Shown piece after piece: positions 4,593-21,232 of a stretch of 64,000 bases of DNA. Both the position numbers and the translations under genes were made by a program. The DNA comes from Elusimicrobiota bacterium (GTDB taxonomy: Bacteria > Elusimicrobiota > Elusimicrobia > FEN-1173 > JAKLIF01). Location: positions 318,661 to 382,660 of the forward strand of contig JAKLIF010000001.1 in NCBI GenBank assembly GCA_022709755.1. Reading direction: 5' to 3'. The notes under the pieces were generated by a model. That model was given only the letters and a program-made list of their open reading frames with translations, did not search any database and had not been told where the DNA came from. Each line of letters begins with the position of its first letter. Position 1 is the first letter of the stretch.

Positions 4593-5339
4593 ATGATCAA
4601 ACTCGTTTTAGTCCGGCACGGGGAAAGCACTTGGAACAAGGAGAACCGCTTCACGGGATGGACGGACGTGGATCTCTCCGACACGGGAAGGACTGAGGCC
4701 CGCGAGGCCGGCGTCGTCCTGAAACGAGAGGGATACGTTTTCGATGTCGCCTACACCTCGCTCCTCAAACGCGCCATCCGCACATTATGGTCGATCCTCG
4801 ACGAGATGGACCTCATGTGGATCCCGGTGCATCGCACGTGGAGACTGAACGAACGGCACTATGGCGCCCTGCAGGGGCTCAACAAAGCGGAGACGGCGGC
4901 GAAGTTCGGGGAAGATCAGGTCAAGGTTTGGCGGCGGAGCTATGACGTTCCGCCCCCGGCCCTGGAACCGTCGGACGAGAGATATCCCGGACGCGATCCC
5001 CGATACAAATCCCTGACCCCGGCCGAGTTGCCGAAGACGGAATGCCTCAAAGACACGGTGGCCCGGTTCCTCCCCCTCTGGAAAGAATCTATTTCATCGG
5101 ATGTCCGCGCGGGGAAGAAAGTCCTGATCGCCGCGCACGGGAACAGTCTGCGGGCCCTGGTCAAATACCTGGACGACATCTCGGACGCCGATATCACGGA
5201 ACTCAACATCCCGACGGGGATGCCTCTGGTCTACGAGCTGGACGATCGGCTGAAACCGATCAAGAAGTATTATCTGGGAGACGCGGAAAAAGTGCGGAAG
5301 GCCATGGAAGCCGTCGCCAATCAAGGAAAGAAAAAATAA
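4593..5339 (+). CDS. gpmA: 2,3-bisphosphoglycerate-dependent phosphoglycerate mutase
   Basis: [26 protein letters not shown] (catalytic His in the RHGE motif), ...[10 protein letters not shown]; ~248 aa, typical dPGM length. AAGGAG SD 8 nt upstream of the ATG. Confidence 0.93.
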
Positions 5340-5342
5340 TCC

Positions 5343-6710: not shown

Positions 6711-6721
6711 GGGCTCCTCTT

Positions 6722-7756
6722 TTATAAAGGCAAGGCGATGTACTCCAGATGAAGGACATCCTGAGTCAGGTTCTCGAAATAGTAAGGGCTATCCGGGGGG
6801 ATCAAGAGATATCCATAATCCATCTCCTGCTGTTCGGACCCGATGTAGGCCAGGCCGCGCCCTTTGCTCACCCGATAGATCAGGCTGAGCCCCTTCTCCC
6901 GCACGGTGACCGTCCTTCCTCCCGGAGGAACGATGAACCCACCCACCCGGTGAGGGGAATTCGTCGGGAGAAGCCCCTGCGACTGATAGAACGGGGCGAC
7001 GTCGAAACGGGCCGCTTCGGACAGTTCTCCGGGGGCCACGACCTGGGTGACCGGCCCCCGCGTCTTCTTGCCCGGAGTCTCGATGGCCTTGAGCAGTCTC
7101 CAGAGATCGCGCGCCAAAACCGCTTCCACCGACCAGTCCTCATGAGGGCGGCCCGGGGAGGACCGGGTCTCATCGGCCTGGATCAACAACGGGGGCATGG
7201 CATTATAGAGCAGTTGCCGCTCGGTCGCCGACTTCAACGACTCATAGCGGGTCATGATATCCCAATAGATCCGGCTTTCCGGCTCTCCCAGTCGCCGGCG
7301 AAGAAGAACGTCCTCCAACAACCCGTCGAATTCACGGCGATAGCGTTCCCAACTCTGAAATACCAGTTTTTCCGCTTCGGGGTCGGCCGGGACGGATCTT
7401 CCCCGGGACCGCTGCATCCGGACCGACTGAGACCGCTGCCGAAGGGATTGAACGTCGCCGTCGAGCGTCGTCGGGGGGGTCCCCCCCGCGACCTTGAACT
7501 GTTCGTGGAGCTCCCGAAGGCGTTCTTCTCCCAGTTTCGTGACCCGCTGATAGTCGTAGTGGGCGGCCCGCACGCGCTCGCAGGTCAACCGAGAGACAGC
7601 CTCCACATCGGCCTTGAACTGTCGGGACGAGGGCGGGTCTCCCGCCCAGAGCGTCGCGGGACAAAGGAGCGAAACGGACACCACGGCGATTCGGCATTGA
7701 TGAGAAAAAAAGACGGGCTTTGACATTCTCCGTCTGTGGAAGAGGGGCGGGATCAT
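6722..7756 (-). CDS. Hypothetical secreted protein (signal peptide), no recognisable domain
   Basis: Probable start at MSKPVFFSHQCRIAVVSVSLLCPATLWAG (signal peptide, start ~7726). 4-bp overlap with the upstream GT-C-like paralog (7753-7756). Confidence 0.65.
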   Translation of the reverse strand: MIPPLFHRRRMSKPVFFSHQCRIAVVSVSLLCPATLWAGDPPSSRQFKADVEAVSRLTCERVRAAHYDYQRVTKLGEERLRELHEQFKVAGGTPPTTLDGDVQSLRQRSQSVRMQRSRGRSVPADPEAEKLVFQSWERYRREFDGLLEDVLLRRRLGEPESRIYWDIMTRYESLKSATERQLLYNAMPPLLIQADETRSSPGRPHEDWSVEAVLARDLWRLLKAIETPGKKTRGPVTQVVAPGELSEAARFDVAPFYQSQGLLPTNSPHRVGGFIVPPGGRTVTVREKGLSLIYRVSKGRGLAYIGSEQQEMDYGYLLIPPDSPYYFENLTQDVLHLEYIALPL

Positions 7757-9537
7757 GATCTTAGTCTATCACGTATGAAACGGTTGGGCAACGAACCGGG
7801 AGGAGGCGACATCCCCGATTCCGTTCGTCCGTGACGGGACTTGAAAACAAAAAGATACACCCTCTCCGTCATCCGATAGCCGACCGCATCGCGATACGAA
7901 TCGAATATCTTCCGATACTTGGTTTTATCGACGAGTTTTTGGAGTCCCTCCATCGTTTCCCGACGGACAACCTCCACGGGGCTCCCCTCTCCCCGTTCAT
8001 CATCGACCACCATGAACAGATAGCGGCGACCGTCGAACAGTCCCAGATGCTTCCGTTGCCACTTCTTGCCGGGAGAGGGAAGGATATCATACATGTTCCA
8101 ATCGAAACGGATATCGTTATAAAATGCCTGGGAATCGACCAAATAGGACACCAAGCCCCAATGATTCCTGATCCCCTGCAGAGTCCCATCGGATTGTATC
8201 CTCACCCCGGTCTCCACAACGGGGATCGGGCCCCCCGGCGGGACCGGCTGTTCCTGTTTCAGGTAATGGAACAGCTGTCTCAGGTCATACAGTTCCTGAT
8301 AATAATCCCTCTCGTTGTATTCCCTCGAATGTCCGTGTTGGGGAGCCAAGACGTGGAACCCGGTCAGTGAAGCCAAACAAAACCATATCAGGAATCGTGT
8401 CTTGGGACCGGACCGCTGTATGATCCTCCAAGACAACAGCACGAAGAGCATGATCCCGGCCGAATAAAAAGCCGTGTAATTGCCGACATAAGTCCTCGGC
8501 ACGGCGATCAAGACCAAAAAATTTGCGGCCACAAACGACGAAAGGAACCCAAGAACCCTCCCCCCTTCTTCCGGCGGACGGGACTGCGCGGATTTCAACC
8601 GGATCCGATAATAGAGGAGCGCCACGGAACAGAACGAATAAAACACCGAAGGACCCCAATACCCCTTCAGGTCTCTCATCACGCTCATGAAAGCCCAAGG
8701 AGAACGACTTCCGATGGTGACCGCGTGGGCGCGAAGCAATCCCTTGAAATCGAAATACGGGAAACCATCCGTTAAAAACCGATTCAAACAATAATCCTCC
8801 CGATATCCATTCCCCAGCAGAAGGGCGACGAAGAAGAGGATGAAGACAACCGGCGCGAATTTTTTATCGGCCGAGAAGAACCAATACACCCAGATGATGA
8901 AAAAATAGAGGTAGGCCGAATAATGGATCCATGTGGAGACATAGAACAGAGCACCGAAGAGGATGAGATATCTCATCCTCCGGCCTTCCATATAAATCCA
9001 ATGAATGTGCAGGGCCCAGACAGTGACACAGGCCAGCGGCAAGAAACCGAAATAGCGTCGCGACATCGCAATGACGTTGGGGGTGGTCAGCAACAACATC
9101 GCCCCCACGAGACTGATCAATTCGTTCCGCGTTTGCCGGAAGAGGAACACAGAGACGGCCAGAGCCAACCCGAGCAAAGCCCAGATCATGCTCATCTTAT
9201 AGACAAACAAGGATTTTCCGAAGACCTGGAAACAGACCGCCAGGACCAGCGTTTGCAAATTCTTTCCATACCAATAGTCGCTCCGATGAAAGAGCAGGTC
9301 CCGAATGCTGTCGCGGATATAGCGGCCGGGATCCCGGTCATAATCCGAATACATCCCGGAAGCGGACAGGATCACACCATCGTGATCGAAAGCGAAGATC
9401 TGGTCGCTGATGGCATAACTCGAGTAATCCAGGACCGTATAGCCGACAATCAACGCCAAACAGAGCCCGAACAGAAGCGGGGTCTTATCAATCTTCGATA
9501 TGTCCAAGAGACGCCTCTCCGCGCGACCGGAAGACAA
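7753..9537 (-). CDS. GT-C-like polytopic membrane protein, paralog 1 of 5 (putative PMT_2/ArnT-like glycosyltransferase)
   Basis: 594-aa ORF. TM1 (LLFGLCLALIVGYTVL), then an ~80-aa loop with the acidic motif FAFDHDGVIL...YSDYDRDPGRYIRDSIRDLLFHR, then ~10 more TM helices, then a ~190-aa C-terminal soluble domain. This topology is typical of GT-C enzymes. Family assignment is a fold-level inference. Confidence 0.8.
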   Translation of the reverse strand: MSSGRAERRLLDISKIDKTPLLFGLCLALIVGYTVLDYSSYAISDQIFAFDHDGVILSASGMYSDYDRDPGRYIRDSIRDLLFHRSDYWYGKNLQTLVLAVCFQVFGKSLFVYKMSMIWALLGLALAVSVFLFRQTRNELISLVGAMLLLTTPNVIAMSRRYFGFLPLACVTVWALHIHWIYMEGRRMRYLILFGALFYVSTWIHYSAYLYFFIIWVYWFFSADKKFAPVVFILFFVALLLGNGYREDYCLNRFLTDGFPYFDFKGLLRAHAVTIGSRSPWAFMSVMRDLKGYWGPSVFYSFCSVALLYYRIRLKSAQSRPPEEGGRVLGFLSSFVAANFLVLIAVPRTYVGNYTAFYSAGIMLFVLLSWRIIQRSGPKTRFLIWFCLASLTGFHVLAPQHGHSREYNERDYYQELYDLRQLFHYLKQEQPVPPGGPIPVVETGVRIQSDGTLQGIRNHWGLVSYLVDSQAFYNDIRFDWNMYDILPSPGKKWQRKHLGLFDGRRYLFMVVDDERGEGSPVEVVRRETMEGLQKLVDKTKYRKIFDSYRDAVGYRMTERVYLFVFKSRHGRTESGMSPPPGSLPNRFIRDRLRS

Positions 9538-11326
9538 AAAGACGCGTGCCCGGATCCATCTGATAATCCACGAGATACTGGTACATTTCCATTACTTTTT
9601 TCAGGAATTTGGAATCCGCCAAGGACCTCATCTGATCCTCCACGTAGACATGATCAAACTTCATGCTTCGTTCAACCCCCTCCATGTGTTTGACAAGGAC
9701 GAACAGATAACGATACCCATCTAACACAGCCACGGCACGGTCATCCGGGGAGACCTCCTCAGGCGATGTTTTGGCCTTCGTCGTCAACGCGTCGAAATGA
9801 TACGGCCTAAAACGGACATCCTCATAGAAAGACTGCGCGTCCACAAAACAGCTCATCATGTAAACGTCACTGAAGTCCTTCTGATAGACCAATTGTTGCT
9901 GATTATTCAAGACCAATCCCGTCCGAAGAGACCCGATCTCCTTGGCTCCCCCTCCGTCCTCCGTTTGCCTGACGTAATGAAAGAACTGCCCCAAACCATC
10001 GCTCCCCTTTATTTCCGACGGGACCCCGAAGCGCCAAACCCCCCCGGCCCGCACGAGTTGCAGCGGGACGACGATAAACAGACAGGCCCATCCGACATTT
10101 CTGAACCAAACCGATGGACTCCTCGTCAAACCCCACGCCATCAAGACATAAAGCAGCGCGCCCGCCGAGTATAACACCACGTAACTCTCCGTCTTAACAA
10201 CGCCGATCAAGCGCATGATGACGATCAGCGAGACCATGATCGCCCCCAAGAACCGCATCGTCCGGATGGTCGCCGCCACCGGCTCCGGATTTTTCCTGTT
10301 CCCGATGAAACAGCGAAGGCCATAAACGATCAGGAGAAATCCGGACATATAAAACAGCGCTTCGCCATACTCCGCTTTCAGTCCATGATGGAAATCAGCC
10401 AGACCCGGACCCGGGTGTTTCCTCAAGAAAACCAGTCCGGAAGAGATCAGATCCGTCACCGGGCCATTCGGAGCGGCCGATCCCAGGATCGGTCCTATTC
10501 TCTTCTGAAACCGGCTCAACCACCACAACAATTGGTCCTTGTTCCATAACAGAACCGACAGATAAAATATCGAATAAACCGCGAGGAAACGACGCTCCTT
10601 CCACACGAACAGGCCGACGACGGCGAACATCATGAAATACAAATAGACCGAATAATGGATCCATGTGCCGACGACAAAAAGAGCGCACAACAGGGCGAAC
10701 CAGCGCCGCCCCCCCTCCTCCTGGTAACGGAGATACGCATAGAGCGCCCAGAGCGCCACGCAGGCCATCGGCAAAAATCCGAAATATCTTCGAGACATCG
10801 TGATCGTGTTCGTCATCGTCAATAAGAGCAGCGCCCCCCACAGGCCGGCCAGTTCACTCCGCGTTTCGCGATAAAGCAGGAGATAGGCGGCCAGGACCAG
10901 ACCCAGAAGCGCCCAGATCATGCTCATTTTATAGACGATCAATGTCTTTCCGAAAAGCATGAAGCAGCCCGCCAGGATCAGCGTCTGTAGATTCTTCGTA
11001 TACCACCGGTCTCCGCGGTGAAAAAGGATATCCTGAACGCTCTCCCGCAGATATCGCCCGGGAGCCCGCTGATCATAATCCGAATAGATCCGGGCGGAGG
11101 ACAAGATCATATAATCATGATCGATGACGTAATCGCGATCGGTGATTGAATACACATAATGGCCAGCCCAAGCATAGCCACAGACCGTCAGCAAGCAGAG
11201 ATAAAACAGGATCTTGTTCTTGAACAGACGGGTTTTCATCATCGGCCAGAGCGAGGAGAGACGGGAGGCCCCCCGTCCGGACAACGGGACCACGGGATTA
11301 ACGCGGGGCACTTCCTGCCCGAGCAT
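9488..11326 (-). CDS. GT-C-like polytopic membrane protein, paralog 2 of 5
   Basis: 612-aa ORF; true start probably MMKTRLFKNKILFYLCLLTV (~11242). Loop motif VIDHDYMILSSARIYSDYDQRAPGRYLRESVQDILFHRGDRWYTKNLQTL. Core ~60 % identical to paralog 1. Confidence 0.8.
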   Translation of the reverse strand: MLGQEVPRVNPVVPLSGRGASRLSSLWPMMKTRLFKNKILFYLCLLTVCGYAWAGHYVYSITDRDYVIDHDYMILSSARIYSDYDQRAPGRYLRESVQDILFHRGDRWYTKNLQTLILAGCFMLFGKTLIVYKMSMIWALLGLVLAAYLLLYRETRSELAGLWGALLLLTMTNTITMSRRYFGFLPMACVALWALYAYLRYQEEGGRRWFALLCALFVVGTWIHYSVYLYFMMFAVVGLFVWKERRFLAVYSIFYLSVLLWNKDQLLWWLSRFQKRIGPILGSAAPNGPVTDLISSGLVFLRKHPGPGLADFHHGLKAEYGEALFYMSGFLLIVYGLRCFIGNRKNPEPVAATIRTMRFLGAIMVSLIVIMRLIGVVKTESYVVLYSAGALLYVLMAWGLTRSPSVWFRNVGWACLFIVVPLQLVRAGGVWRFGVPSEIKGSDGLGQFFHYVRQTEDGGGAKEIGSLRTGLVLNNQQQLVYQKDFSDVYMMSCFVDAQSFYEDVRFRPYHFDALTTKAKTSPEEVSPDDRAVAVLDGYRYLFVLVKHMEGVERSMKFDHVYVEDQMRSLADSKFLKKVMEMYQYLVDYQMDPGTRLFVFRSRGEASLGHIED

Positions 11327-11332
11327 CGACGA

Positions 11333-13108
11333 TCACACCCCTTCCGAGGACGGGGGAACGCCACGTTTCGCTCGAAAGACGATGAGCCGGCGCCCCGGGG
11401 CCCCCATACCATAATGCACCAGATACCGATAGTTTCTCGTGACCTCCGCGAGAGCATTGTTTCCCGCCGTCTCTTTCACCGCAGAAAAAACCCGGTCCGG
11501 AAGAACATCCGAACCCTGCGGTGTGAACACGAAGAGGACGGGAATCTCTTTCGAAATATCTTTCTTCTTCCCCAATGAAGCATCCCCCCGTCTCCCCGCC
11601 GACAACCCCGCCTCCTCACACAGACCTTCCCATTCCAATCGCACGCCTCCATAAAAAGCCTGGGCGGTGATCAATTCATCGTGGATGTTCGGCCTCCCTT
11701 TAAACAACGGAGGGCACGTCCAGCGCGATTCTCCGGCCTTGTCTTTTTCTATGAAACCCACCATCGCCGGGATGGTCTTATCACCCGACGGGACATAATT
11801 ATTTTTTAAATAATGCATCAATTGGGAGAGGTCAATCATTTCATTGGACATCCGATAGGTATTGGAAGGCCGGGGGGCATTCCAAGACACCGCCATCACG
11901 GTGCCGACCAGACAGCTCCACGAGAACACCCTGAGCCAGGGGCCCCCCGACCGCCCCATATCCCACAAGATAAGAACGAAAAGCAAGACCCCCACCACAT
12001 AAAACACCACATAGTTGGACAATTGGACGATGTCGTTCATGAACATCGCCAGGGCGATGCCGGCCAAGACAGCGGCCAAAATCTTTATTCCAAACCGGGA
12101 CCTCGAGAGATCGTCGGCCTTCCTCTTTAAATGCCACAGAGCGTATAGGAACGCCGAAAAGACATAAAGATAGAATACCACTCCTCCGAACTGATATCGA
12201 AGTATGTCATACTCCGCTCGGTAATGCCGCGAGAAAATGCCGTGAATGACGTATCGACACGCCTTCATTGTTTTGTCCGCAATCCCGTTGAGTCCGCCCA
12301 GCGGGCCCTCCTCATAGAATTGCCACTGCAAGCCGAGTGTCTGATGGATGTTCATCATGAGTACCCCGACATAAAGAAGGAAGAAGAGCCCCGCGGAAGT
12401 CCGGCGACGAGGGATCATCAACAGGAGAACCCCCATCACAAGGAAATAGAGGTAGGCGGAATAATGGGTCCAACTGGCGACATAGAACACCCCGCAGAAA
12501 AGAAGGAAATACCGTTTCCCGTGATCCTGGAGATAAAGCAAGAAAGCACAGGCACCCCATAGGAACAGGCAAGCCAGGGGGATGAACGCAAAATACGTGC
12601 GAGACATCGCGACGATGTTCGGGATGAGGAGCATCAGGAGCGTTCCCAGAAGTCCGACCATTTCGCTTCGGGTCAGGACATACAAAATGCAGTATCCCGC
12701 CAGCGCGAGCCCGAGGAGCGCCCAGATCATGCTCATCTTATAGACGAACACCGTTTTCCCGAATAGTGCGAACAGGATGGCGAGGACCGTCGTATGGAGA
12801 CGACAGGCGTCCCCTTGCCGGCGCCAGGGAGCCACCATATCTTGAAAACACCGCCGAATGTAACCCGCCGGATCCTCCGAATACACCGAATAGAACCCGG
12901 CCTTCTCCAGAATGACGCAATCATGTTCGACCACGAAATTCCTATCACTGACGGCATATCCGTACTGCATCACGCACACATGAGCACAGATGAAGAGCAG
13001 GCATATCCCCGCAAGGATCTTGTTGTGATAGGACCGCATCAGGACAGTCCCCGCTCCGCCGATCCATCCGCGCAGAACAGCTGTCATACCGGTCATCGAC
13101 ACCGTCAT
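11333..13108 (-). CDS. GT-C-like polytopic membrane protein, paralog 3 of 5
   Basis: 591-aa ORF; probable start MRSYHNKILAGICLLF (~13039). Loop motif VVEHDCVILEKAGFYSVYSEDPAGYIRR. Core VYKMSMIWALLGLALAGY...MSRTYFAFIPLACLFLWG. Confidence 0.8.
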   Translation of the reverse strand: MTVSMTGMTAVLRGWIGGAGTVLMRSYHNKILAGICLLFICAHVCVMQYGYAVSDRNFVVEHDCVILEKAGFYSVYSEDPAGYIRRCFQDMVAPWRRQGDACRLHTTVLAILFALFGKTVFVYKMSMIWALLGLALAGYCILYVLTRSEMVGLLGTLLMLLIPNIVAMSRTYFAFIPLACLFLWGACAFLLYLQDHGKRYFLLFCGVFYVASWTHYSAYLYFLVMGVLLLMIPRRRTSAGLFFLLYVGVLMMNIHQTLGLQWQFYEEGPLGGLNGIADKTMKACRYVIHGIFSRHYRAEYDILRYQFGGVVFYLYVFSAFLYALWHLKRKADDLSRSRFGIKILAAVLAGIALAMFMNDIVQLSNYVVFYVVGVLLFVLILWDMGRSGGPWLRVFSWSCLVGTVMAVSWNAPRPSNTYRMSNEMIDLSQLMHYLKNNYVPSGDKTIPAMVGFIEKDKAGESRWTCPPLFKGRPNIHDELITAQAFYGGVRLEWEGLCEEAGLSAGRRGDASLGKKKDISKEIPVLFVFTPQGSDVLPDRVFSAVKETAGNNALAEVTRNYRYLVHYGMGAPGRRLIVFRAKRGVPPSSEGV

Positions 13109-13120
13109 ATTGGAACGCCC

Positions 13121-14941
13121 CTAGACACCCTCATCACGCGCCCCGGCGGGTCCCGCCTCACGGCTCCCCGCGGGCCTTTTCCCATAGACGTAGAAATACA
13201 GCCCCTCGGTCGCTTTAAAACCGGTCATATAACGGAACGGGCTGAATATCTTCCGATAAGCAACGGAGCCGATGTTATCCCGGATGACATGGGCTACCCG
13301 TTCTTGGGTGGCCTCTGTCGCCATGTCTTGGCGGTCACGCCAGTCGACCAAGACGATCAGATAGTGATATTCGGAGGCTGTATCCGCCGCTTTGTCCGGA
13401 GGGATCCATTTACCGACAAAACCGGGCAAATGGGTCTCGAGCGGATCGAAGTATTGTGTCTGGAATATCACGTCATGGAAGAATGCCGGAGAATCAAGGT
13501 AATTCCTGAACGGGTGTATATAATAAAAGTTGCCGACATATTTCAACTGTCCGTCGGGAGCGGCGCGAAGACCCGTCCGCAACGTTTTAATGACAGTCAT
13601 CCCGTCCATGTTCCGGAATCCTTTCATGTAGTCCACGAGAAGACCCGGATCATACACATCCCGCGGATAATCTCTTTCATTATATGCGGGAGGGTGTCCG
13701 TGGTACGGCGACGCCGCATGATACAACGCCAGACCGACCAGGCAAATCCAAGCCGATCCGCTGACCCAACTATTTTCATACCGGCTTAATTCCCATAACA
13801 CCAAGACCGTCAACAGGATCCCGGCCACATAGACGGAAAGGAAATTGATGCTTTCCACGCACACGAACACGTTCATAATGAGGAAGCTGCCCGCCAAGAA
13901 CGCCGCCAGAAGCATCATCGCCTTCCTGGTTGCGCAATCCGACCACTTCCGTCCTCTCCGGAGAGAGCCGGCATAAACCAGGATGCCGAGGATGAGCGCA
14001 TAAAACACATTGCTCCCCAAATGGCCCCGGAAGTTCATGATGATGCCCTTCAAAGCGTTCCAAGAGGTGTCTTCGAAGATATAGCCGACATAAGCCTTGA
14101 CGCGCAGGAGAATGCCGATGTCAGCGGACGGAGCGCCCCCTACTGTTTCAGCGCCGAAAAGCATGCTGAACCATAGAGCATATTTAGGGCTGTTCCAAAG
14201 AATGATCCCGATGACGATCGATAGGAACGACAATGCGGCACGCCGGTCTTGGATCAGCCAATAGGCGCCGAAGATCCCGGCATAGAGGTAGATCGAATGA
14301 TGGGCCAATGAGCCCAGATAAAATAATGCGCACACCATTGCGAAGTAACTCGTCCTCCTGTTCTCCTCATACAACAGAAAGACATGGAACGCCCACAACA
14401 ACAGGCACGCCACCGGCAGGAAACCAAAATATTTCCGGGAGTTTGTGATCACGCTTGGGAGTGTCACCAGGAGGAGGGTCCCCGACAAAGCGGTCAATTC
14501 GCTTTTTGTCTGCCTGAACAGGAACACGTACGCGGCCAACGCCAAACCCAACAACCACCACACTAAACTCATTTTATAGGCCACCAACGTTTGGCCGAAC
14601 ACCAGAAAGAACAACGACAGTGTCAGAGATTGGATGGTCTGGCCGCGCCAGTTCTCCCCCCGGTGAAGGACCATCCCCTGAACACCCTCTTTGATGTGTG
14701 ACCAGGGCCCGTATTCCTCATTATCGAATATATGCGCGAGATGCAAATAGGGATAATCATGATCCACCGCAAAGGAGGGATCGCTGACAGCATATCCCCA
14801 TTGCATCAGGACGACATACCCACACAGGAACACGATACACATCCAATGCAAAACCCCGCCGGAATATACTTTTGATGATTTGATCGAATGGTTCATCGTC
14901 TCAAGCCACTGCGCCATGAAGAAGGTCCGTTGGTCATGCAT
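13121..14941 (-). CDS. GT-C-like polytopic membrane protein, paralog 4 of 5
   Basis: 606-aa ORF. Loop motif AVDHDYPYLHLAHIFDNEEYGPWSHIKEGVQGMVLHRGENWRGQTIQSL. Core AYKMSLVWWLLGLALAAYVFLFRQTKSEL...NSRKYFGFLPVACLLLWA. Confidence 0.8.
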   Translation of the reverse strand: MHDQRTFFMAQWLETMNHSIKSSKVYSGGVLHWMCIVFLCGYVVLMQWGYAVSDPSFAVDHDYPYLHLAHIFDNEEYGPWSHIKEGVQGMVLHRGENWRGQTIQSLTLSLFFLVFGQTLVAYKMSLVWWLLGLALAAYVFLFRQTKSELTALSGTLLLVTLPSVITNSRKYFGFLPVACLLLWAFHVFLLYEENRRTSYFAMVCALFYLGSLAHHSIYLYAGIFGAYWLIQDRRAALSFLSIVIGIILWNSPKYALWFSMLFGAETVGGAPSADIGILLRVKAYVGYIFEDTSWNALKGIIMNFRGHLGSNVFYALILGILVYAGSLRRGRKWSDCATRKAMMLLAAFLAGSFLIMNVFVCVESINFLSVYVAGILLTVLVLWELSRYENSWVSGSAWICLVGLALYHAASPYHGHPPAYNERDYPRDVYDPGLLVDYMKGFRNMDGMTVIKTLRTGLRAAPDGQLKYVGNFYYIHPFRNYLDSPAFFHDVIFQTQYFDPLETHLPGFVGKWIPPDKAADTASEYHYLIVLVDWRDRQDMATEATQERVAHVIRDNIGSVAYRKIFSPFRYMTGFKATEGLYFYVYGKRPAGSREAGPAGARDEGV

Positions 14942-14944
14942 GTC

Positions 14945-16714
14945 TCAGGGCCTCCTGTTCCGATAGACGGTGAGTGTCATCCCCATGTCGATCGGATAAT
15001 GGGCCAGTAAACGATAAGACTCACCCATTCTCCGGTGCGACAACGGGTCCCCGTTTTGTTCTAAATATTTCTCAAAACATCGCGCCCGACCCTCCCGATC
15101 GTCCATCTCCCGGCGCTCATCGCCCACGAACACGAAGAGATAATCATATGGCTTCCCCCCTCGATCCATGTCATTATCCACCAAATCCCGCATGGCTTTC
15201 TGCGATGCGAGCCCCGCCGGGGGATTCAAAATAACCCACGATATCCTCATGGAGCTGTAAAACGCCCTTGAATCCAAGCAAGAGATGTTCTTTTTGAGGT
15301 CGTACATCTTATCGCACTGCCCGCCGGATCCCATTTCCGCCCCCGCGACGAGGCAAACCGTGGATCCCCGTTTTGAGGCATCTTGTTCCGTTTGGATATA
15401 GTGCATGAGTTGAACCAAATCGAGCTCTTCTCCCTGCCCCCAATATTTGCGGACACGCTCGTATCGGGCCGAATAAACATCCTGTTGAGACAGCACCAAG
15501 ACAACAAGGATCCCGAAGACACAGGTCCCCATCCATCGGGGCATATATCGACTCATATCCCATAACAAGAGTGTCAACAAAATGGCTTCGAGCACATAGA
15601 ACATGGTGAAATTTCCCGCCGCCACACCCGACGTCATCAACATGACGGACAACAGGGCCCCCATGCAAAACAAAAGAAAGGCGACGACGGCGTCGACCTC
15701 TCTTTTTCCGTCGATCCGAGGTCTGATGTATTTCCGATGAAACCAGATATAGACCGGCAACAGAGCCGCCAACAGGGAATAGGTGGCCGGCCCCCCGTGC
15801 CTCTTCAGTCCTCGGAAACAGAACATCATCCCTCGATAGAAATCATGTCCATCACCCACGGCCAAGGGAGTCAACGGGAGCCCCCCATGGAATAAATTCA
15901 GGAACGAAAAAAACCATCTCGGCATGACGTTCATGTCCTTATAGAAGAGCATGAAAAACACGAGGAGGAATGCGATCGCAACGCGCCTCGTGTTCGGCCG
16001 CAAAAACAAATAAAAACCCAATATCCCGAAATAAAGATATCCCGAATAATGGGTTCGGACGGCCATAAAGAACAACATGATGAAAAAAAAGAAATCCCTC
16101 CACCGAAAACACCGGCACATCGAGATACACAGGTTCAAAGCCCACATCATGACGCAGGCCAAGGGAAGAAAACCGAAGTACAAACCAGCCATTTTCACGA
16201 CGTTGGGAAGGACCAATACAAGGAGTGTTCCCAGAAAAGCCGTCATTTCCATCTTGGTCTGCCGATAAAGAAAGACATACACGCCGAACGCCAACCCCAA
16301 TAAAGCCCAGACCATGCTCATTTTGTAGACGAACAGGGTCTTGCCAAAAAAGATGAAACAGAGGGCAAGGATCAGCGTATGAGGACTATATCCTCTTCTC
16401 CCATCGCCGAAACTGAACAACCGGCGCAACGACACCCGAACGTACCCAGGGGGGTTTTGGCTGAACAAAGCGCCCCCCCCCATGAACCCGGCGGCAGTCA
16501 ATATGTCGTAATCATGGTCCGGAGCCACGACGCGATCCGTGATGGCGAATCCATATTGGCCGAGAATGACATAGCCGGTGATGAACAAAAGGCAGAACCA
16601 ATGAAGAAGGACCGATTGATAGGGTTTATTGAATAATGTTGGTTTCATCATCAGACCGATGGGCACGGCGGGAGCCGGCATGGAGCGGAAAGGGGTCATG
16701 GGGCCTGCCATCAA
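14945..16714 (-). CDS. GT-C-like polytopic membrane protein, paralog 5 of 5
   Basis: 589-aa ORF; probable start MMKPTLFNKPYQSVLLHWFCLLF (~16651). Loop motif VAPDHDYDILTAAGFMGGG. Core VYKMSMVWALLGLAFGVYVFLYRQTKMEM...LYFGFLPLACVMMWA. Confidence 0.8.
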   Translation of the reverse strand: MMAGPMTPFRSMPAPAVPIGLMMKPTLFNKPYQSVLLHWFCLLFITGYVILGQYGFAITDRVVAPDHDYDILTAAGFMGGGALFSQNPPGYVRVSLRRLFSFGDGRRGYSPHTLILALCFIFFGKTLFVYKMSMVWALLGLAFGVYVFLYRQTKMEMTAFLGTLLVLVLPNVVKMAGLYFGFLPLACVMMWALNLCISMCRCFRWRDFFFFIMLFFMAVRTHYSGYLYFGILGFYLFLRPNTRRVAIAFLLVFFMLFYKDMNVMPRWFFSFLNLFHGGLPLTPLAVGDGHDFYRGMMFCFRGLKRHGGPATYSLLAALLPVYIWFHRKYIRPRIDGKREVDAVVAFLLFCMGALLSVMLMTSGVAAGNFTMFYVLEAILLTLLLWDMSRYMPRWMGTCVFGILVVLVLSQQDVYSARYERVRKYWGQGEELDLVQLMHYIQTEQDASKRGSTVCLVAGAEMGSGGQCDKMYDLKKNISCLDSRAFYSSMRISWVILNPPAGLASQKAMRDLVDNDMDRGGKPYDYLFVFVGDERREMDDREGRARCFEKYLEQNGDPLSHRRMGESYRLLAHYPIDMGMTLTVYRNRRP

Positions 16715-16785
16715 CGGAAAAGATCCGTCATATCTTCTGAAAACCGATCATCCGGAAATTCCGGGGAGCCGCACAATCCCGCCGG

Positions 16786-18696
16786 TCAGTCGACGAACCA
16801 GATCGTGATTCCCGCCCAATAAGTCCTCGCCACATTGGGGACCAACCCGGTGCTGACGGATTCGATGAAACGCTTGTTCGTTATATTATCCACACCGAGA
16901 TAAAGATCGGAACTCAGGATCTTCTTGACCAACCTCGCGTGCCAGAGGGTATAGGAGGGGAACCTCATCCCCTGTTCGTTATCATATTGAAAACGATGGT
17001 GCACGTATTGCACCGTATTGATCAACCTCCATTTTCTGGGGAGAGAAGTCGTCAGGCGATAGTTCGCCGTATGACGGGGCGTCATCTGGAGCGGGACGTA
17101 ACGATAGGACCCCATGGAGTTCCCGATCGCCCGCTGATAGGTGTAATTGATACTCTCCTCGAAGGGTCCCCAACGCGAATCCATCTCCGCCTCGCCCCCC
17201 GTCACCTCGGCCCGCGGAGCATTCTCATAAACCGCCGATTTCGCCGCAATCCGTTCCCTCAACTGAGAATGAAAACCCGTCAGTTTCAACGAGAATGTCT
17301 TTCCAGACCGCCATTCCGTCCCGGCGTCATAAGTCCAGGCGGTTTCGGGTCTCAAGAAGATATTCCCCAAAGTTCCGCTCGACGAGTAGAGTTCGGTGAA
17401 CGAGGGGGCGCGGAACGAGCGGGCGGCGCTGCATGAAAGCCTCCAATTCGGGGTGGCCCGAAAAACGATCGCCAATCGTGGATTCACCACGTTACCGAAC
17501 GCGCTGTGCTGGTCCAGTCGCACTGTGGGGATCAGATCGCATCGGTCTCCCTCCCAATGCTCCTGCACGGTGACGCCCCACGAGGCGGCATGATGCGGCG
17601 TTCCCCCCTCAATCAACTCTTCATCCCGTTCATAGGAACCCCCGACGCTGAAACCGCCGGGGAACTGAAGTCGCGTGGTGTTTCCGACGACCTGGTTGAC
17701 CCGTTCCATATCCGGATCAGCACCGCTGGACGGACGGGTCAGATATTTCTGTCTGGACCCATAGGACATCGTCTGCAATCCCGCGGGGGACTCCCCGAGG
17801 GGGAGCGACAAGGTGAGCCGACCCAGATCGGTCGTCTGTTCCACACGACGCCATCGGTTCGACGGCTCTTTTTCCCGCCGCCCATCCCACCGGTCAACGG
17901 GAATCGGGGTCCCCTGGGGATCTCCGGTCTCCTGACTCACGCGGGACAGGGCCAGGGAGATCCGCGTTCCGTTCTGGGCCGTGTATTCGCCATTCCCGGT
18001 CAGAGCCGCATTGTGCCCCTCGGAATTCGTCTGGTATCCACCCGTGTAATACTTGCTCCCCGTGATATAGGTATCAAACCCCTTGCCCCCCGTGCCCAGT
18101 TGAGCGTTATACATGCGGACCGGATAAGAACGTCTTTCCCCGCTGGAAATCGGATAAGAGCGGGTTTGATATCCGAAAGAAGAATGGGCCTTCTCGGCGG
18201 TGTGCCGTTTGGTGATGACATCGATGACCCCGCCCAAGGTGTTGGCTCCATGGACCATGGAGGACCCTCCTCGGACGACCTCAATCTTCTCGATGTTATC
18301 GACGGGGATCTGAGAGAGATCGACGAACTGGGAAGAGACCCCTCCCAACGGCTGGCCATCGATCAGGATCCGGCACGAGGCGGGCGACGGCAGTCCCCTC
18401 ATCCGGCATGTTGCCATGGAACCCAAGGCGCCCGTCTTCTGGACGTCGATCGAAGGCAATCGGTCCAGGACGTCGGCCAGAGATTGGCCTCCCGTGTTCC
18501 GAATCTCCTCTTTCCGGTAGACAGTGATATTGGTGGGTAAGCGGCGTGAATCTGTCTTTGACAGCGTATAGGACAAAAACTCCGAATCCGGATCGACCTT
18601 CTGCGCCGCCATCGACCGCGTCTTCGTAAAAAAGAATGTGATCGTCGCCAATGCGACGAAGGTTCTTAGCCGCATCTCAAATGAGACAAAAAACAT
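16786..18696 (-). CDS. TonB-dependent outer-membrane receptor
   Basis: Signal peptide (MRLRTFVALATITFFFT). Plug-domain motifs ...ITVYRKEEIRNTGGQSLADVLDRLPSIDV... and IEKIEVVRGGSSMVHGANTLGGVIDVITK. Long beta-barrel region rich in alternating aromatic residues. C-terminus ...TYWAGITIWFVD. Confidence 0.88.
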   Translation of the reverse strand: MFFVSFEMRLRTFVALATITFFFTKTRSMAAQKVDPDSEFLSYTLSKTDSRRLPTNITVYRKEEIRNTGGQSLADVLDRLPSIDVQKTGALGSMATCRMRGLPSPASCRILIDGQPLGGVSSQFVDLSQIPVDNIEKIEVVRGGSSMVHGANTLGGVIDVITKRHTAEKAHSSFGYQTRSYPISSGERRSYPVRMYNAQLGTGGKGFDTYITGSKYYTGGYQTNSEGHNAALTGNGEYTAQNGTRISLALSRVSQETGDPQGTPIPVDRWDGRREKEPSNRWRRVEQTTDLGRLTLSLPLGESPAGLQTMSYGSRQKYLTRPSSGADPDMERVNQVVGNTTRLQFPGGFSVGGSYERDEELIEGGTPHHAASWGVTVQEHWEGDRCDLIPTVRLDQHSAFGNVVNPRLAIVFRATPNWRLSCSAARSFRAPSFTELYSSSGTLGNIFLRPETAWTYDAGTEWRSGKTFSLKLTGFHSQLRERIAAKSAVYENAPRAEVTGGEAEMDSRWGPFEESINYTYQRAIGNSMGSYRYVPLQMTPRHTANYRLTTSLPRKWRLINTVQYVHHRFQYDNEQGMRFPSYTLWHARLVKKILSSDLYLGVDNITNKRFIESVSTGLVPNVARTYWAGITIWFVD

Positions 18697-18720
18697 CCTT
18701 CATCATCGGATCGCGTCCCC

Positions 18721-19077
18721 TCAACCCAACTTCTTCATTTTAGCCAAAAGCCCGATCACCTCGGTCGTCTTGCTTCTAAACGGTGATTGGGGGTTGTCGA
18801 GTATGGCCAACGCCTCGGTGATTTTATTCGAATTAACCAGATTGACGATTTCCGCAGCGTATCGATGGAACTCCGCATGAATCTCAATCAATTTCTGGAA
18901 ATCGGGGGAACTCCCGAATTTTTCCTTCGCCTCTCCGTGGATCCATTTCCCCAGATCACACCGGTTATCTTTATTGACCAGATTCGAATCCAGGTTCTCT
19001 TTTCGATCGGCTTTGCAATAATCCCGAAGTCTCATCTTCCAATTCACATGAGCCTGCATGGCTTCATCGATGTTCAT
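18721..19077 (-). CDS. Stand-alone CZB (chemoreceptor zinc-binding) domain protein
   Basis: 118 aa with the CZB signature H-x2-W ... C-x-LGKW-x-H ... FH (AHVNWKMRLRDYCKADRK...NRCDLGKWIHGEAKE...EIHAEFHRY). GC content markedly lower (~48 %) than surrounding genes. Confidence 0.8.
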   Translation of the reverse strand: MNIDEAMQAHVNWKMRLRDYCKADRKENLDSNLVNKDNRCDLGKWIHGEAKEKFGSSPDFQKLIEIHAEFHRYAAEIVNLVNSNKITEALAILDNPQSPFRSKTTEVIGLLAKMKKLG

Positions 19078-19272
19078 GACACACCTCCATCGTCATTAAA
19101 GTCATTTTCATTATAAGAGTATTACCCGTAAACCGCAACAGCATATTCCCGCCGGGGAACACCCCCGACCACCGTCTTTTCAGTATTTAAAACGCGGGCC
19201 GCGCGGAAACGACACGATTAATCTTCTCACTCGGGCGTCCTTATCTTATAATTCTACCAGGAAGCGACAGAC
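19078..19272. promoter_or_regulatory. Divergent promoter region between the CZB gene (-) and the SGNH hydrolase gene (+)
   Basis: AT-rich. TATAAT at 19247-19252, ~20 nt upstream of the SGNH ATG, with an AGGAAG SD. On the other side it is the likely promoter for the CZB-TonB-dependent receptor-GT-C block. Confidence 0.3.
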
Positions 19273-20229
19273 ATGGCATTTTTTCATACATTAAAAACAT
19301 CCTTCTCCACGCTCATCAAGATCGCCGGGAAAATCATCCTCATCTTGATCCTCACCGAGATCGTATTGGGTACCACTGGAATCCTGCTTTTAACCTACTA
19401 CAGGCATTTCGTCTATTCCAAGATCCCGTTATTAAAGGACGAACACAGGATTCTGTTTATCGGCGAATCGACGACCTGTGGAGACGGCTCCACCAACAAA
19501 CAAACGGACTCATACCCGGCCCAACTTGAAAGGATTCTGAATTCTCAAACCCCCCGCAACCGGTTCCGGTCGATCAATATCGGGTTCGGCGGTCTGACGA
19601 CAGAACACATGCTCAGAGACCTAAAAGAAAATATCTATCGGTATAAGCCAGACATCGTGGTGATCCAGGCGGGATTCAACAATTGTTCCCCCAGCCTGTT
19701 CACCCTATTCAAAGGCCAATCCTTGCCGGCGGCCTGGAGGAAGATCGTCATCATGAAATTGGAGATGTCGCGGACCTATCGTCTCATGAAATGGGCCTAT
19801 GAGTCCGTCTGGAAACAATGTTTGCTGCGCTACCTGCAGAACCGTGGGTTCACCCCGACATCAAATCCGGGGTTTTGGGTGACCGACATGTATCCGGAGG
19901 AATACCAAATAACGAAGGTGGAATCGGAAATACACCTATGCCGGATGATCGAAATCCTCCGCGAACACAACATCCCGCTCGTCCTGTGCGGGTATTTCAT
20001 CGCCGAAGACGAGAACATCATGCTGCGCCGGTTATCAAAGACATACGCCGTCCCCTTTTGCGACAATGAGTTGGAGGACACGCCGTTCAATAGAAAGGAA
20101 TACATATCCGTGGACCAATTCCATCCCAACACGAACGGATATTTCCTCATCGCCCAGAATCTATTCAAGACGTTGACCGACCATCATCTCATCCCAGAAA
20201 CCCCTTCCGACCCGTCCACCGCGTCTTGA
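19273..20229 (+). CDS. Membrane-anchored SGNH/GDSL-family hydrolase (esterase/acyl-hydrolase, possibly carbohydrate O-acyl esterase/transferase)
   Basis: N-terminal TM helix (IILILILTEIVLGTTGILLLTYY). Block I FIGESTTCGDGS (GDS-like with nucleophile Ser). Block V DQFHPN (catalytic Asp/His). Low GC (~45 %). AGGAAG SD 8 nt upstream. Confidence 0.8.
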   Translation: MAFFHTLKTSFSTLIKIAGKIILILILTEIVLGTTGILLLTYYRHFVYSKIPLLKDEHRILFIGESTTCGDGSTNKQTDSYPAQLERILNSQTPRNRFRSINIGFGGLTTEHMLRDLKENIYRYKPDIVVIQAGFNNCSPSLFTLFKGQSLPAAWRKIVIMKLEMSRTYRLMKWAYESVWKQCLLRYLQNRGFTPTSNPGFWVTDMYPEEYQITKVESEIHLCRMIEILREHNIPLVLCGYFIAEDENIMLRRLSKTYAVPFCDNELEDTPFNRKEYISVDQFHPNTNGYFLIAQNLFKTLTDHHLIPETPSDPSTAS

Positions 20230-20260
20230 CTTTTTTGACCAACTCGGCTAAAGTCTTGTC

Positions 20261-21232
20261 ATGTTTCGGAAAGAAATCAAGGTATTGGACTGCACCATCC
20301 GCGACGGCGGGCTGATCAACAATTATCAGTTCTCCGACGATTTCGTCAAAGCCGTCTACCGCGCCATCTGCGAGGCCGGAGTGGACTTCATCGAACTGGG
20401 AAAGAAACTCTCCGAGAGCGCCGAGTATTCCCGTTCGAAGTTCGGCCCCTGGAATTTCTGTGACGACGACATCCTGAAGCGGATCGTCGACAGCCATGAC
20501 TGCAAAGTCCGCCCGGCCATTGCGGTCATGTTCGACGTGGGGCGAGTGGATATTTCCTCCCTGAAAGACAAGAAGGACAGCCCCGTGGACATGATCCGAA
20601 CGGCCTGCTACGTCCCCCAGATCGACAAGGGCCTTGATCTGGTCAAACGGAGCAAAGACAAGGGATACAGGACTTCTTTGAACATCATGGCGGTTTCAGC
20701 GGCCATCGAATCGGAGTTGATCGAGGCGCTGGAAGAAGTGGCCAAGGTCCCCGAAGTGGATTACCTCTATCTGGTGGACAGCTACGGTGCTTTCTATTCG
20801 GAACAAGTCTCCTATTATCTCAACCTGTATTCCAAATACGTGCCGAAGGAAAAACTGGGTTTCCACGGCCACAACAACATCCAGCTGGGATATTCCAACA
20901 CGCAACAGGCCATCATCGACGGCGTCAACCTATTGGACGCCACCATCAACGGGATCGGGCGCGGAGCGGGGAACTGCTGTTTGGAACTGCTGTTGGGATT
21001 CCTGAAGAACCCGAAATTCGACGTGCGGCCGATCTTCAAGGTGATCCAGAAGGAATTCGTTCCTCTGAGGAAACAGATCGAGTGGGGATACAACGACATC
21101 TACGGGATCTCCGGGATACTGAACCAGCACCCTCGGGAAGCCATGAAGTTCCGGGCCACTCCCGAGACCCGCGATAATTGCTACGATTTCTACGAATACG
21201 TCACGCGACAAGACATCGTCGCGGCCGAATAA
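20261..21232 (+). CDS. DRE-TIM metallolyase (HMGL-like; 4-hydroxy-2-oxovalerate aldolase/DmpG-like) family protein
   Basis: LDCTIRDGG (cf. DmpG DVTLRDGSHA). LVDSYG. HGHNNIQLGYSNTQQAIIDGVNLLDATINGIGRGAGNCCLELLL (metal-binding His pair plus GxGxGAGN). No adjacent acylating dehydrogenase partner (no DmpF). Confidence 0.75.
   Translation: MFRKEIKVLDCTIRDGGLINNYQFSDDFVKAVYRAICEAGVDFIELGKKLSESAEYSRSKFGPWNFCDDDILKRIVDSHDCKVRPAIAVMFDVGRVDISSLKDKKDSPVDMIRTACYVPQIDKGLDLVKRSKDKGYRTSLNIMAVSAAIESELIEALEEVAKVPEVDYLYLVDSYGAFYSEQVSYYLNLYSKYVPKEKLGFHGHNNIQLGYSNTQQAIIDGVNLLDATINGIGRGAGNCCLELLLGFLKNPKFDVRPIFKVIQKEFVPLRKQIEWGYNDIYGISGILNQHPREAMKFRATPETRDNCYDFYEYVTRQDIVAAE

Follow-up and report, generated by a model that had tools for sequence, protein, structure and literature searches.

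The AT-rich stretch at positions 18697-20230 of this DNA from an uncultured Elusimicrobiota bacterium is probably the junction of two divergent native transcription units and not a horizontally acquired island. In the window, by which we mean the whole 64,000-nucleotide (64-kb) stretch of DNA that was analyzed, a minus-strand operon headed by a CZB-domain gene would meet at this point a plus-strand unit in which an SGNH hydrolase gene is followed 31 nt later by an aldolase gene. The features that bear on this reading are:

7753..16714, minus strand: five tandem orphan membrane-protein paralogs of 589-612 aa, each with a C-terminal soluble domain
16786..18696, minus strand: TonB-dependent outer-membrane receptor, 636 aa, with Plug and TonB_dep_Rec_b-barrel domains
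18721-19077, minus strand: CZB gene, 46.5% GC, GC3 0.59
19078-19272: divergent intergenic (control) region, 195 bp between the CZB and SGNH genes, 48.2% GC
19273-20229, plus strand: SGNH gene, 49.8% GC, GC3 0.69
20261-21232, plus strand: aldolase gene, 54.1% GC, GC3 0.76 (native-like)

The stretch has a GC content of 49.1%, against a mean of 58.4% (SD 4.0%) for 1,534-bp windows across the 64 kb, and it lies at the GC minimum of the window, in the 0.8th percentile of windows of its own size. Sliding-window analysis therefore agrees with a sequence-only reading of this DNA that had described the CZB and SGNH genes as AT-rich and the aldolase gene as only modestly lower in GC. The same reading had placed the neighboring genes above 60% GC, which is too high: the immediate neighbors have 57.5% (TonB receptor), 56% (DivIC) and 58.9% (enolase), the five membrane-protein genes have 52-54%, and 60-64% is reached only in the 25-47 kb block of the window. 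Nor is the region between the CZB and SGNH genes unusually AT-rich, as had been claimed, since true intergenic DNA elsewhere in the window has 39-49% GC.

We decomposed the GC deficit of each gene into an amino-acid term and a synonymous term. The two terms are -0.077 and -0.057 for the CZB gene (z -4.2), -0.072 and -0.029 for the SGNH gene (z -3.6) and -0.069 and +0.011 for the aldolase gene, with amino-acid composition contributing 55-70% of the deficit in the first two and 100% in the third. The FYMINK content of the three proteins is 0.32-0.35 (mean, 0.24), and their GARP content is 0.19-0.21 (mean, 0.285). The GC dip is real, yet it is owed mostly to the amino-acid make-up of the proteins. 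Relative to the 64-kb window, the synonymous-site deficits of the CZB and SGNH genes are moderate but statistically real. They fall within the range of native genes: deficits as large or larger occur in the ferritin gene (z -5.2), in a DsrE-like gene (-4.6) and, over the adjacent 11 kb of the minus-strand operon, in the TonB receptor gene (-4.6) and the five paralogs (-5.4 to -8.9); genes at 57-63 kb have values of -2.9 to -3.8. For the aldolase, GC2 stays at 0.31-0.33 across seven genomes in which GC3 varies from 0.61 to 0.90, which indicates that its low GC is a property of the family. We propose that the low GC of the stretch reflects proteins rich in Phe, Tyr, Met, Ile, Asn and Lys and poor in Gly, Ala, Arg and Pro, together with a moderate relaxation of GC3 that is common to many genes.

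The sequence-only reading had favored horizontal acquisition of a two-gene island and had named beforehand, as the finding that would speak against it, best matches from the same lineage. The closest non-self homologs of the CZB protein (65% identity), the aldolase (80%) and the SGNH hydrolase (three paralogs, 35-38%) all come from another Elusimicrobia species (GCA_035454525.1 / RA.bin118), and this result contradicts a recent arrival by that reading's own standard. For the CZB and SGNH proteins, Elusimicrobia relatives are separated from all others by a clear gap in E value (3e-41 to 2e-35 versus 1e-24 or weaker). The sister species carries homologs of all three genes in other contexts: its CZB homolog adjoins rfbC and a 16S rRNA gene, and its closest SGNH homolog is the last gene of an rplU-rpmA-obg-proB operon.

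That a two-gene cassette was newly inserted between the TonB receptor and aldolase genes is very improbable. Such an event would fit the GC minimum and a raw tetranucleotide distance in the top 4.3%, a measure that is not GC-normalized. The GC-normalized dinucleotide signature is typical, however, with a delta* of 60.7 for the stretch against a window mean of 68.8 and equal or higher values in 57% of windows. The two supposed partners, moreover, are transcribed in opposite directions as parts of separate operons, most of their GC deficit comes from amino-acid composition, their best homologs lie within the same phylum, and four independent assemblies from different samples have the locus in identical form. 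We found no integrase or transposase gene in the window, and no tRNA or direct repeat at the stretch. The single tRNA of the window (tRNA-Met, 2111-2185) is distant and the flanking repeats are short matches at chance level, and we rejected island borders of either kind. Nothing indicates recently imported DNA.

An ancient transfer is harder to set aside, although we consider it unlikely. According to this alternative, the CZB gene, the SGNH gene or both, and perhaps the whole 7.7-20.2 kb block, came from a low-GC donor into the ancestor of this Elusimicrobia lineage and have since been largely ameliorated, with third codon positions near the host value and first and second positions lagging behind. 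Near-native GC3 combined with low GC1 and GC2 is the pattern expected of low-GC DNA that arrived long ago and has been largely ameliorated. At 0.44, the GC1 of the SGNH gene is the lowest in the window, and its GC3 is 0.69 where 0.76 is expected. GC3 is 0.59-0.70 over the entire 7753-20229 block, compared with 0.74-0.85 in the housekeeping block. The fold does not dictate the composition of the SGNH copy in the window, because the sister-species homolog has 61% GC; more distant SGNH relatives are found mostly in low-GC Omnitrophota and Planctomycetes (Planctomycetales) metagenome-assembled genomes (MAGs), and one homolog of the five paralogs belongs to a genome with 37% GC. In addition, of the five proteins in the window with the strongest AT bias, three are encoded side by side here (permutation test, p ~0.03), a mildly non-random clustering of compositionally extreme genes that counts against native origin, although the composition of the aldolase is intrinsic to its family. 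Against an ancient transfer stand the Elusimicrobia affinity of the nearest CZB and SGNH relatives with its clear E-value gap, the typical dinucleotide signature, the presence of native housekeeping genes of the same composition (ferritin and DsrE-like) and a search of the window that found no mobility remnants. We retain the junction of two native units as the preferred reading.

The CZB gene is the first of a predicted minus-strand operon of ~13.7 kb that comprises the CZB gene, the TonB receptor gene, the five paralogs and two further open reading frames (ORFs). Its product is a stand-alone (CZB-only) protein of 118 aa with no signal peptide, and it matches all 64 positions of the Pfam PF13682 profile (E 2.7e-15; 56.9 bits, cut-off 29.4), in keeping with the domain originally assigned. 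The link to DgcZ rests on an alignment to the NCBIfam model PRK09894, in which CZB residues 2-89 correspond to positions 14-101 (offset +12). In this alignment, C40 falls on DgcZ C52, and H10, H67 and H71 fall on the three His ligand positions, which we take to be numbered 22/79/83 in DgcZ. C52 is the zinc-binding Cys of DgcZ, and the CZB motif has been defined as CX(L/F)GXW(Y/L) (PMC8262984). The corresponding segment, C40-D-L-G-K-W-I, fits at six of the seven positions. A "CZB-only" class without a fused output domain has been described (Perkins et al. 2021, PMC8262984). The only close homolog of the protein is the 65%-identical one from another Elusimicrobiota MAG, and a phmmer search of the PDB gave only spurious coiled-coil-like matches. 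With all four predicted metal ligands kept, the protein is probably a cytoplasmic four-helix-bundle Zn(II)-thiolate sensor, which may relay Zn(II) or oxidant status by direct contact with a partner protein.

Between the divergent CZB and SGNH genes, a sigma-70-like promoter match (TTCTCA-17-TATAAT) occupies plus-strand positions 19224-19252, 21 nt ahead of the SGNH start, and a weaker one is found at minus-strand positions 19279-19251. The CZB ATG has a GGAGG Shine-Dalgarno sequence before it. No Rfam family matched this intergenic region at E<=1, and we rejected a riboswitch or other RNA element both here and upstream of the aldolase homologs, where nothing was found. A search for cobalamin and other riboswitches in the window was likewise negative.

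The TonB receptor gene begins 24 nt after the CZB gene, with which it is probably co-transcribed. The best NCBIfam models for the receptor are of the BtuB and siderophore types, all scoring below their cut-offs, and our literature search found no description of a CZB gene leading a TonB-dependent-receptor operon. Downstream of the receptor, in the same orientation and spaced 3-71 nt apart, are the five paralogs, which are 28-32% identical to one another. Their alignment (A2) predicts at least 12 transmembrane (TM) helices and a C-terminal soluble domain, with D60, H67 and D68 invariant after TM1. These features are compatible with a GT-C glycosyltransferase, and the genes are those that the sequence-only reading had called a "GT-C array", a label that we treat as putative. 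No Pfam family matched any of the five at E<0.01 (one of them has a PMT_2 match at E=0.18), a PDB sequence search gave no match, hhalign against a PMT_2 protein returned a probability of 0.2%, and the AF2 model (pLDDT 51) is too poor for a fold search. Elsewhere, our metagenome scan found the family at two loci (L106 and L107), in single copy and beside PMT_2 genes in both cases. The paralogs are a rare orphan membrane-protein family that is amplified five-fold here.

On the other strand, the SGNH/GDSL hydrolase (318 aa) has a single N-terminal TM helix at residues ~17-42 that carries an invariant Glu29. Its assignment stands (Pfam Lipase_GDSL_2, E 4.5e-15, 57 bits against a cut-off of 32.9), and the active-site check that had been suggested found blocks I, II, III and V intact, with Ser66 in block I (GESTT), Gly104 in block II, Asn136 in block III and Asp281 and His284 in block V. 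In an alignment of 16 sequences (A1), G64, S66, T67, G70, N136, H284 and E29 are invariant and E65, N102, G104 and G134 are present in at least 90%. Cys239 and Cys263 mostly co-occur (both are present in ten of these sequences, neither in four and one in two), which suggests a disulfide and an extracytoplasmic, periplasmic domain. The subfamily is lineage-restricted, with five cluster representatives at E<1e-30 (the query and four others, the closest of which is 38% identical). Among proteins of solved structure, generic esterases and acetyl-xylan esterases come nearest (profile E 1e-17 to 1e-14); these score far better than Ape1 (4K3U), which aligns over block V only (E 2.6e-4). On the basis of its complete Ser-Asp-His triad and oxyanion residues, we suggest that the protein is a signal-anchored serine esterase or acyltransferase. 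Its catalytic domain probably faces the periplasm, where it may remove or transfer O-acyl groups on an envelope glycan or lipid.

A functional connection between the SGNH hydrolase and the neighboring array had been proposed as well. In its fuller form, which is compatible with native origin, the hydrolase would cooperate with the five paralogs, and possibly with the TonB receptor, in modifying the O-acyl groups of an envelope glycan or glycolipid, and it would have the 195-bp control region, with the CZB sensor at its head, in common with them. We regard this as doubtful. Evidence for it comes from one independent metagenomic cluster, L107, in the other organism of 37% GC noted above. There the paralog-family homolog is accompanied, at a distance of 3.6 kb, by an SGNH gene whose product has the same architecture, an N-terminal TM helix bearing a Glu (E 3.5e-19 with the A1 HMM; 97.6% hhalign probability), and the two belong to one co-directional cluster with PMT_2, GT2, B12-radical-SAM and carbamoyltransferase genes. 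At L106, too, the paralog homolog adjoins a PMT_2 protein. Much the same families dominate the genes immediately beside SGNH-family members in 80 genomes (n=118): radical SAM (15), B12-binding (6), GT2 (5), carbamoyltransferase (3), GT1 (3), PMT_2 (3) and MBOAT (2), and the covarying Cys pair points to a periplasmic SGNH domain. The co-occurrence of SGNH and array genes is a single case, however: the 80 SGNH-family loci include none with a homolog of the paralogs within 10 kb, and the closest SGNH relatives are found among housekeeping genes (Ala racemase; rplU-obg-proB). In the window itself, the SGNH gene is divergent from the array, with two genes between them, and the GT-C identity of the array is putative given the scores above. 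The SGNH hydrolase has no specific similarity to PatB, Ape1, AlgX or OafB-type O-acetyl enzymes, and we found no MBOAT gene in the window. A functional link to envelope-glycan genes is thus weakly suggested, and the proposed link to this array is a tentative one.

The aldolase (323 aa) had been read as DmpG-like and as missing its usual acetaldehyde-dehydrogenase partner. Its membership in the HMGL-like DRE-TIM lyases is borne out (Pfam E 1.8e-21; 77 bits against a cut-off of 29), and HMGL-like is the only family that Pfam reports at E<=0.01, with no DmpG_comm domain. Orthology to DmpG is not. The protein scores 103 bits against TIGR03217 (cut-off, 286) and 117 against PRK08195 (cut-off, 229), and its sequence alignments with DmpG end at residues 246-250. 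All 24 family members compared carry Leu18 at the position of DmpG His21, which we take to be the catalytic base described by Manjasetty 2003 and Baker 2011. As had been noted for this locus, an acylating acetaldehyde dehydrogenase (DmpF/BphJ) is absent beside the aldolase, and this extends to all ten contexts inspected (the window and nine others). The replacement of the catalytic His, the scores below curated cut-offs and the missing dehydrogenase partner together exclude DmpG orthology.

Homologs that are 72-82% identical occur in Elusimicrobiota, FCPU426, Glassbacteria, Gemmatimonadota, Deltaproteobacteria and Chromatiaceae. Within this clade (alignment A4; mean column identity, 78%), R14, D15, H202 and H204 are invariant and correspond to the enolate-stabilizing Arg and to an Asp/His/His metal site. 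The AF2 model (pLDDT 82) has 3DXI as its best fold match, followed by DmpG-type aldolases (TM-score ~0.70). 3DXI is the N-terminal domain of BVU_2661, annotated as a "putative aldolase" and ~30-35% identical to our protein (E 6e-41), and a literature search on it returned only unrelated matches. We conclude that the protein represents an uncharacterized, extremely conserved, stand-alone DRE-TIM clade. As a metal-dependent lyase, it may make or break a C–C bond next to a 2-oxo acid, and with Leu in place of the catalytic His, its chemistry would differ from that of DmpG.

No neighbor is shared across the nine other aldolase contexts. A hemerythrin gene lies upstream of the homolog in two of them, and the Chromatiaceae homolog is located between trpE and trpG. 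We also considered the SGNH and aldolase genes as a conserved pair and rejected this: at locus L012, the GDSL_2 gene divergent from the aldolase homolog is unrelated to the SGNH gene of the window (E 0.13), making the proximity there a coincidence, and an aldolase homolog was found at none of the SGNH-family loci.

Taken together, the GC dip is accounted for and the genes appear native, so the stretch has no importance as a candidate transferred island, and the locus overall is ordinary. For genomes of ~60% GC, it carries a caution that a local GC dip can come mainly from amino-acid composition and needs to be separated into amino-acid and synonymous parts before transfer is invoked. Three elements retain a modest interest of their own: the strongly conserved, taxonomically wide and apparently uncharacterized lone aldolase clade without the DmpG catalytic His; the CZB-only leader gene of a TonB-receptor operon, as a context in which to seek a CZB-only output; and the five-fold amplification of a rare orphan membrane family next door. 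It is conceivable, though in our view improbable, that the CZB zinc or redox sensor heads and, via the shared 195-bp region, also governs an undescribed envelope-modification system, with the lyase a separate, central-metabolic enzyme of non-DmpG chemistry. If so, that system would consist of the TonB receptor, the five-fold orphan family (possibly divergent and GT-C-like) and the SGNH O-acyl esterase or transferase.

Compared with known systems, the stretch resembles genomic islands in being a local GC minimum relative to its surroundings. It differs from them in lacking an integration site, mobility genes and flanking repeats, and in its typical dinucleotide signature, its division between two divergent operons and its same-phylum homologs. 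The CZB protein shares with the CZB-only class, whose prototypes are the CZB domains of E. coli DgcZ and H. pylori TlpD, a predicted four-helix bundle, the CxLGxW core and the lack of an output domain, and it has the 3His/1Cys ligand spacing of DgcZ (H10, C40, H67 and H71). It departs from the CZB consensus in ending the motif with Ile instead of Tyr or Leu. The organism is a free-living Elusimicrobiota bacterium from an anaerobic digester, which makes sensing of host HOCl unlikely for this protein.

The SGNH hydrolase has blocks I, II, III and V in common with the lysophospholipase L1-like esterase 9OTV, Geobacillus Axe2 (3W7V) and Bacteroides GDSL-like proteins. Relative to solved GDSL esterases, it has in addition an N-terminal TM helix with an invariant Glu and an insertion of ~140 residues between blocks III and V, and its block I reads GESTT rather than GDSL. 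The best fold match to the aldolase, 3DXI, is itself uncharacterized. With DmpG/BphI (TIGR03217; PDB 1NVM), the aldolase shares the TIM barrel, the Arg-Asp pair and the His-x-His metal site. The two differ in that the aldolase has an invariant Leu in place of His21, no DmpG_comm domain and no DmpF-type neighbor, and its clade, 72-82% identical across phyla, is far more conserved.

The stretch at 18697–20230 is low in GC (49.1%): among windows of equal size none has a lower value, and it ranks at the 0.8th percentile, 2.3 SD under the 58.4% mean. The gene values of the sequence-only reading are accurate (46.5% for the CZB gene, 49.8% for the SGNH hydrolase gene and 54.1% for the adjoining lyase gene), and the contrast with the neighboring genes that it described is present but smaller than claimed (TonB-dependent receptor 57.5%, DivIC 56%, enolase 58.9%). 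GC reaches only 52–54% in the five genes left of the receptor. The intergenic region, singled out as AT-rich, has 48% GC, which is ordinary against the 39–49% of the window's other true intergenic regions. A ferritin gene (48315–48827, −; 48% GC, GC3 0.60) and a DsrE-like gene (62888–63208, −; 45.5% GC, GC3 0.57) are as low as the flagged genes, so native genes that are small and AT-rich occur scattered over this genome. Upstream of the ferritin gene, the intergenic region (47917–48314) has only 39% GC. Positions 1–1000 have 64.8% GC, a strong AT skew (+0.36) and no convincing complete open reading frame, and are probably part of a gene running off the window start.

Exact-sequence look-ups matched NCBI proteins HOW27192–27194 and JGI contig Ga0116241_10000051 to this region, and the gene order is identical in four independent assemblies:

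7753–16714, − strand: five paralogous membrane proteins, about 590–612 aa
16786–18696, − strand: TonB-dependent receptor
18721–19077, − strand: CZB protein
19078–19272, no strand: intergenic region, 195 bp
19273–20229, + strand: SGNH hydrolase
20261–21232, + strand: HMGL-like lyase
from 21248, − strand: DivIC, enolase, phosphoglucomutase, then pur/pyr genes

The end of the CZB gene lies 24 nt from the receptor gene start, and the minus-strand genes that follow the receptor, down to 5343, are spaced by 3–71 nt or overlap; the CZB gene is thus the first of a co-directional block of ~13.7 kb. The SGNH hydrolase and lyase genes, 31 nt apart, are both on the opposite strand. Given these strands and spacings, what had been read as a two-gene island consists of two divergent genes in different transcription units.

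Around the flagged stretch we found neither a tRNA nor a mobility gene, and no significant repeat flanks it. In an indexed search of 5.8 billion proteins, the sole non-self homolog of the CZB protein was 65% identical and came from another Elusimicrobiota MAG. For the SGNH hydrolase, an exhaustive HMMER search yielded five cluster representatives below 1e-30, including the query itself; three of the four others, 35–38% identical over the full length, are paralogs in the MAG that holds the CZB homolog, from a second Elusimicrobia species (GCA_035454525.1, RA.bin118). When 185,579 species genomes were scanned, the two best SGNH matches again came from RA.bin118, far ahead of those from Omnitrophota and Planctomycetales. 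The best non-self matches of the lyase are 80–82% identical and include the same MAG. In this sister species, homologs of the flagged genes occupy core contexts: at L014:6324–8164, the CZB-only homolog (65% identity) lies between rfbC and a 16S rRNA gene that starts ~540 bp downstream, and the nearest SGNH homolog stands at the end of rplU-rpmA-obg-proB. On the rfbC side of the CZB homolog there is also a cluster for polysaccharide synthesis (GT2, flippase, methyltransferase). The best homologs are therefore in Elusimicrobia, which counts against the horizontal acquisition first proposed; that reading is not supported, and the genes, which sit in a native context, add new members to known families.

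To locate the source of the low GC, we took 37 genes of the window as reference (60.1%) and split each gene's deficit into an amino-acid part, the GC expected under reference synonymous codon usage, and a remainder attributable to codon choice. The amino-acid and codon parts are −0.077 and −0.057 for the CZB gene (z −4.2), −0.072 and −0.029 for the SGNH gene (z −3.6) and −0.069 and +0.011 for the lyase gene, and all three products are among the window's four most FYMINK-rich, GARP-poor proteins. Equal or larger synonymous deficits occur in the five paralogs, the receptor and genes at 51–55 and 57–63 kb, as well as in the plainly native small ferritin and DsrE-like genes. Across seven genomes, lyase GC2 stays at 0.31–0.33 while GC3 tracks the host (0.61 to 0.90), so the lower GC of this gene is a property of its extremely conserved sequence. 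The GC-normalized dinucleotide relative-abundance distance of the flagged stretch (60.7) is below the 68.8 average. An old transfer, since ameliorated, would be expected to leave low GC1 and GC2 with almost native GC3, as seen here; an SGNH paralog of the sister species lacks the low GC, and three compositionally extreme genes stand side by side (p about 0.03). We consider such a transfer unlikely. The low GC stems mainly from protein composition, to which a relaxation of codon choice, common in this genome, adds.

The CZB protein matches the entire Pfam domain. Aligned to the DgcZ model, C40 falls on zinc-binding C52, and H10, H67 and H71 fall on the three histidines. The family is defined by the motif CX(L/F)GXW(Y/L) (PMC8262984), which C40-DLGKWI fits. 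Because it lacks a signal peptide and an output domain, the protein belongs to the 'CZB-only' class named in the same work. By analogy with DgcZ and TlpD, a Zn–thiolate switch would most likely alter helix-bundle dynamics that are read by a partner protein, and the leader position of the CZB gene suggests that this partner may be encoded in the TonB-receptor operon. No riboswitch was found upstream of the gene.

The lyase, previously taken for a DmpG-like aldolase, is a DRE-TIM metallolyase with an HMGL-like domain and invariant R14/D15 and H202/H204. Its AF2 model (pLDDT 82) best matches the fold of 3DXI, followed by DmpG-type aldolases (TM about 0.70). We rejected assignment as DmpG: scores are far under curated cut-offs, alignments to DmpG end at about residue 250, and an invariant Leu occupies the position of the catalytic His21 of DmpG. 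The acetaldehyde-dehydrogenase partner is indeed missing, as no acylating dehydrogenase gene adjoins the lyase gene, either in the window or in any of nine further genomic contexts. The protein represents a different, uncharacterized enzyme family, not a partner-less DmpG. Its clade (alignment A4; loci L008, L009, L012, L018, L023, L108–L110) spans Elusimicrobiota, FCPU426, Glassbacteria, Gemmatimonadota, Deltaproteobacteria and Chromatiaceae at 72–82% identity, which appears to us unusually high between phyla; mean identity per alignment column is 78%. We found no characterized member of this clade; some of its records carry the wrong name 'nucleoid-structuring protein H-NS'. The gene is usually monocistronic and lacks a recurrent neighbor. 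It lies between trpE and trpG in Chromatiaceae and directly downstream of a hemerythrin gene in two genomes.

The five tandem paralogs, called a GT-C array in the sequence-only reading, are 28–32% identical among themselves and are copies of an orphan polytopic membrane protein without a Pfam or PDB match; we found no confirmation of the GT-C identity. Each has a soluble C-terminal domain, and D60/H67/D68, just after TM helix 1, are invariant. In 241 M metagenome records, a pattern scan recovered the family at only two other loci (L106:10013–11647 and L107:9977–11845), single-copy and adjoining PMT_2 (GT-C) genes at each. These proteins may be highly divergent membrane enzymes that handle glycans, with five-fold amplification in this genome only. 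A functional link between this array and the SGNH hydrolase seems doubtful to us: no homolog of the paralogs, CZB or lyase occurs within 10 kb at any of 80 SGNH-family loci, and the closest SGNH relatives are in housekeeping contexts. Two observations favor a link. Direct neighbors in the wider SGNH family are enriched in families typical of glycan clusters: radical SAM, B12-binding, GT2, GT1, carbamoyltransferase, PMT_2 and MBOAT proteins. At L107, on a metagenome contig of 37% GC, an SGNH gene of the same architecture lies 3.6 kb from the paralog homolog in a co-directional cluster (5288–17159, +) that encodes, in order, a TM-anchored SGNH, PMT_2, GT2, B12-radical SAM, the paralog-family homolog, a carbamoyltransferase, a B12-radical SAM and a GT2 fused to radical SAM/SPASM. 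These families also recur in MAGs of Omnitrophota and Planctomycetales, beside genes of the SGNH family, suggesting a recurrent, undescribed type of glycan-modification cluster.

A 16-member SGNH family alignment (A1) shows the catalytic apparatus to be complete, because G64, S66, T67, G70, N136 and H284 are invariant, G104 is nearly so and an Asp is conserved three residues ahead of H284. The N-terminal hydrophobic helix (residues 17–42) is likewise conserved, with an invariant Glu29 in the motif L-x-E-x-x-L; the L107 homolog also carries this transmembrane-helix glutamate (E29). That a charged residue is retained inside what is presumed to be a membrane anchor hints at a function, or a partner, within the membrane. 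Family members mostly have both Cys239 and Cys263 or neither, a pattern suggestive of a disulfide and thereby of a putatively periplasmic catalytic domain.

Among solved structures, the closest relative of the lyase, 3DXI, is itself an uncharacterized structural-genomics target. For the SGNH hydrolase, generic esterases and acetyl-xylan esterases are the nearest relatives with a solved structure; it is not specially close to O-acetyl enzymes acting on peptidoglycan or alginate.
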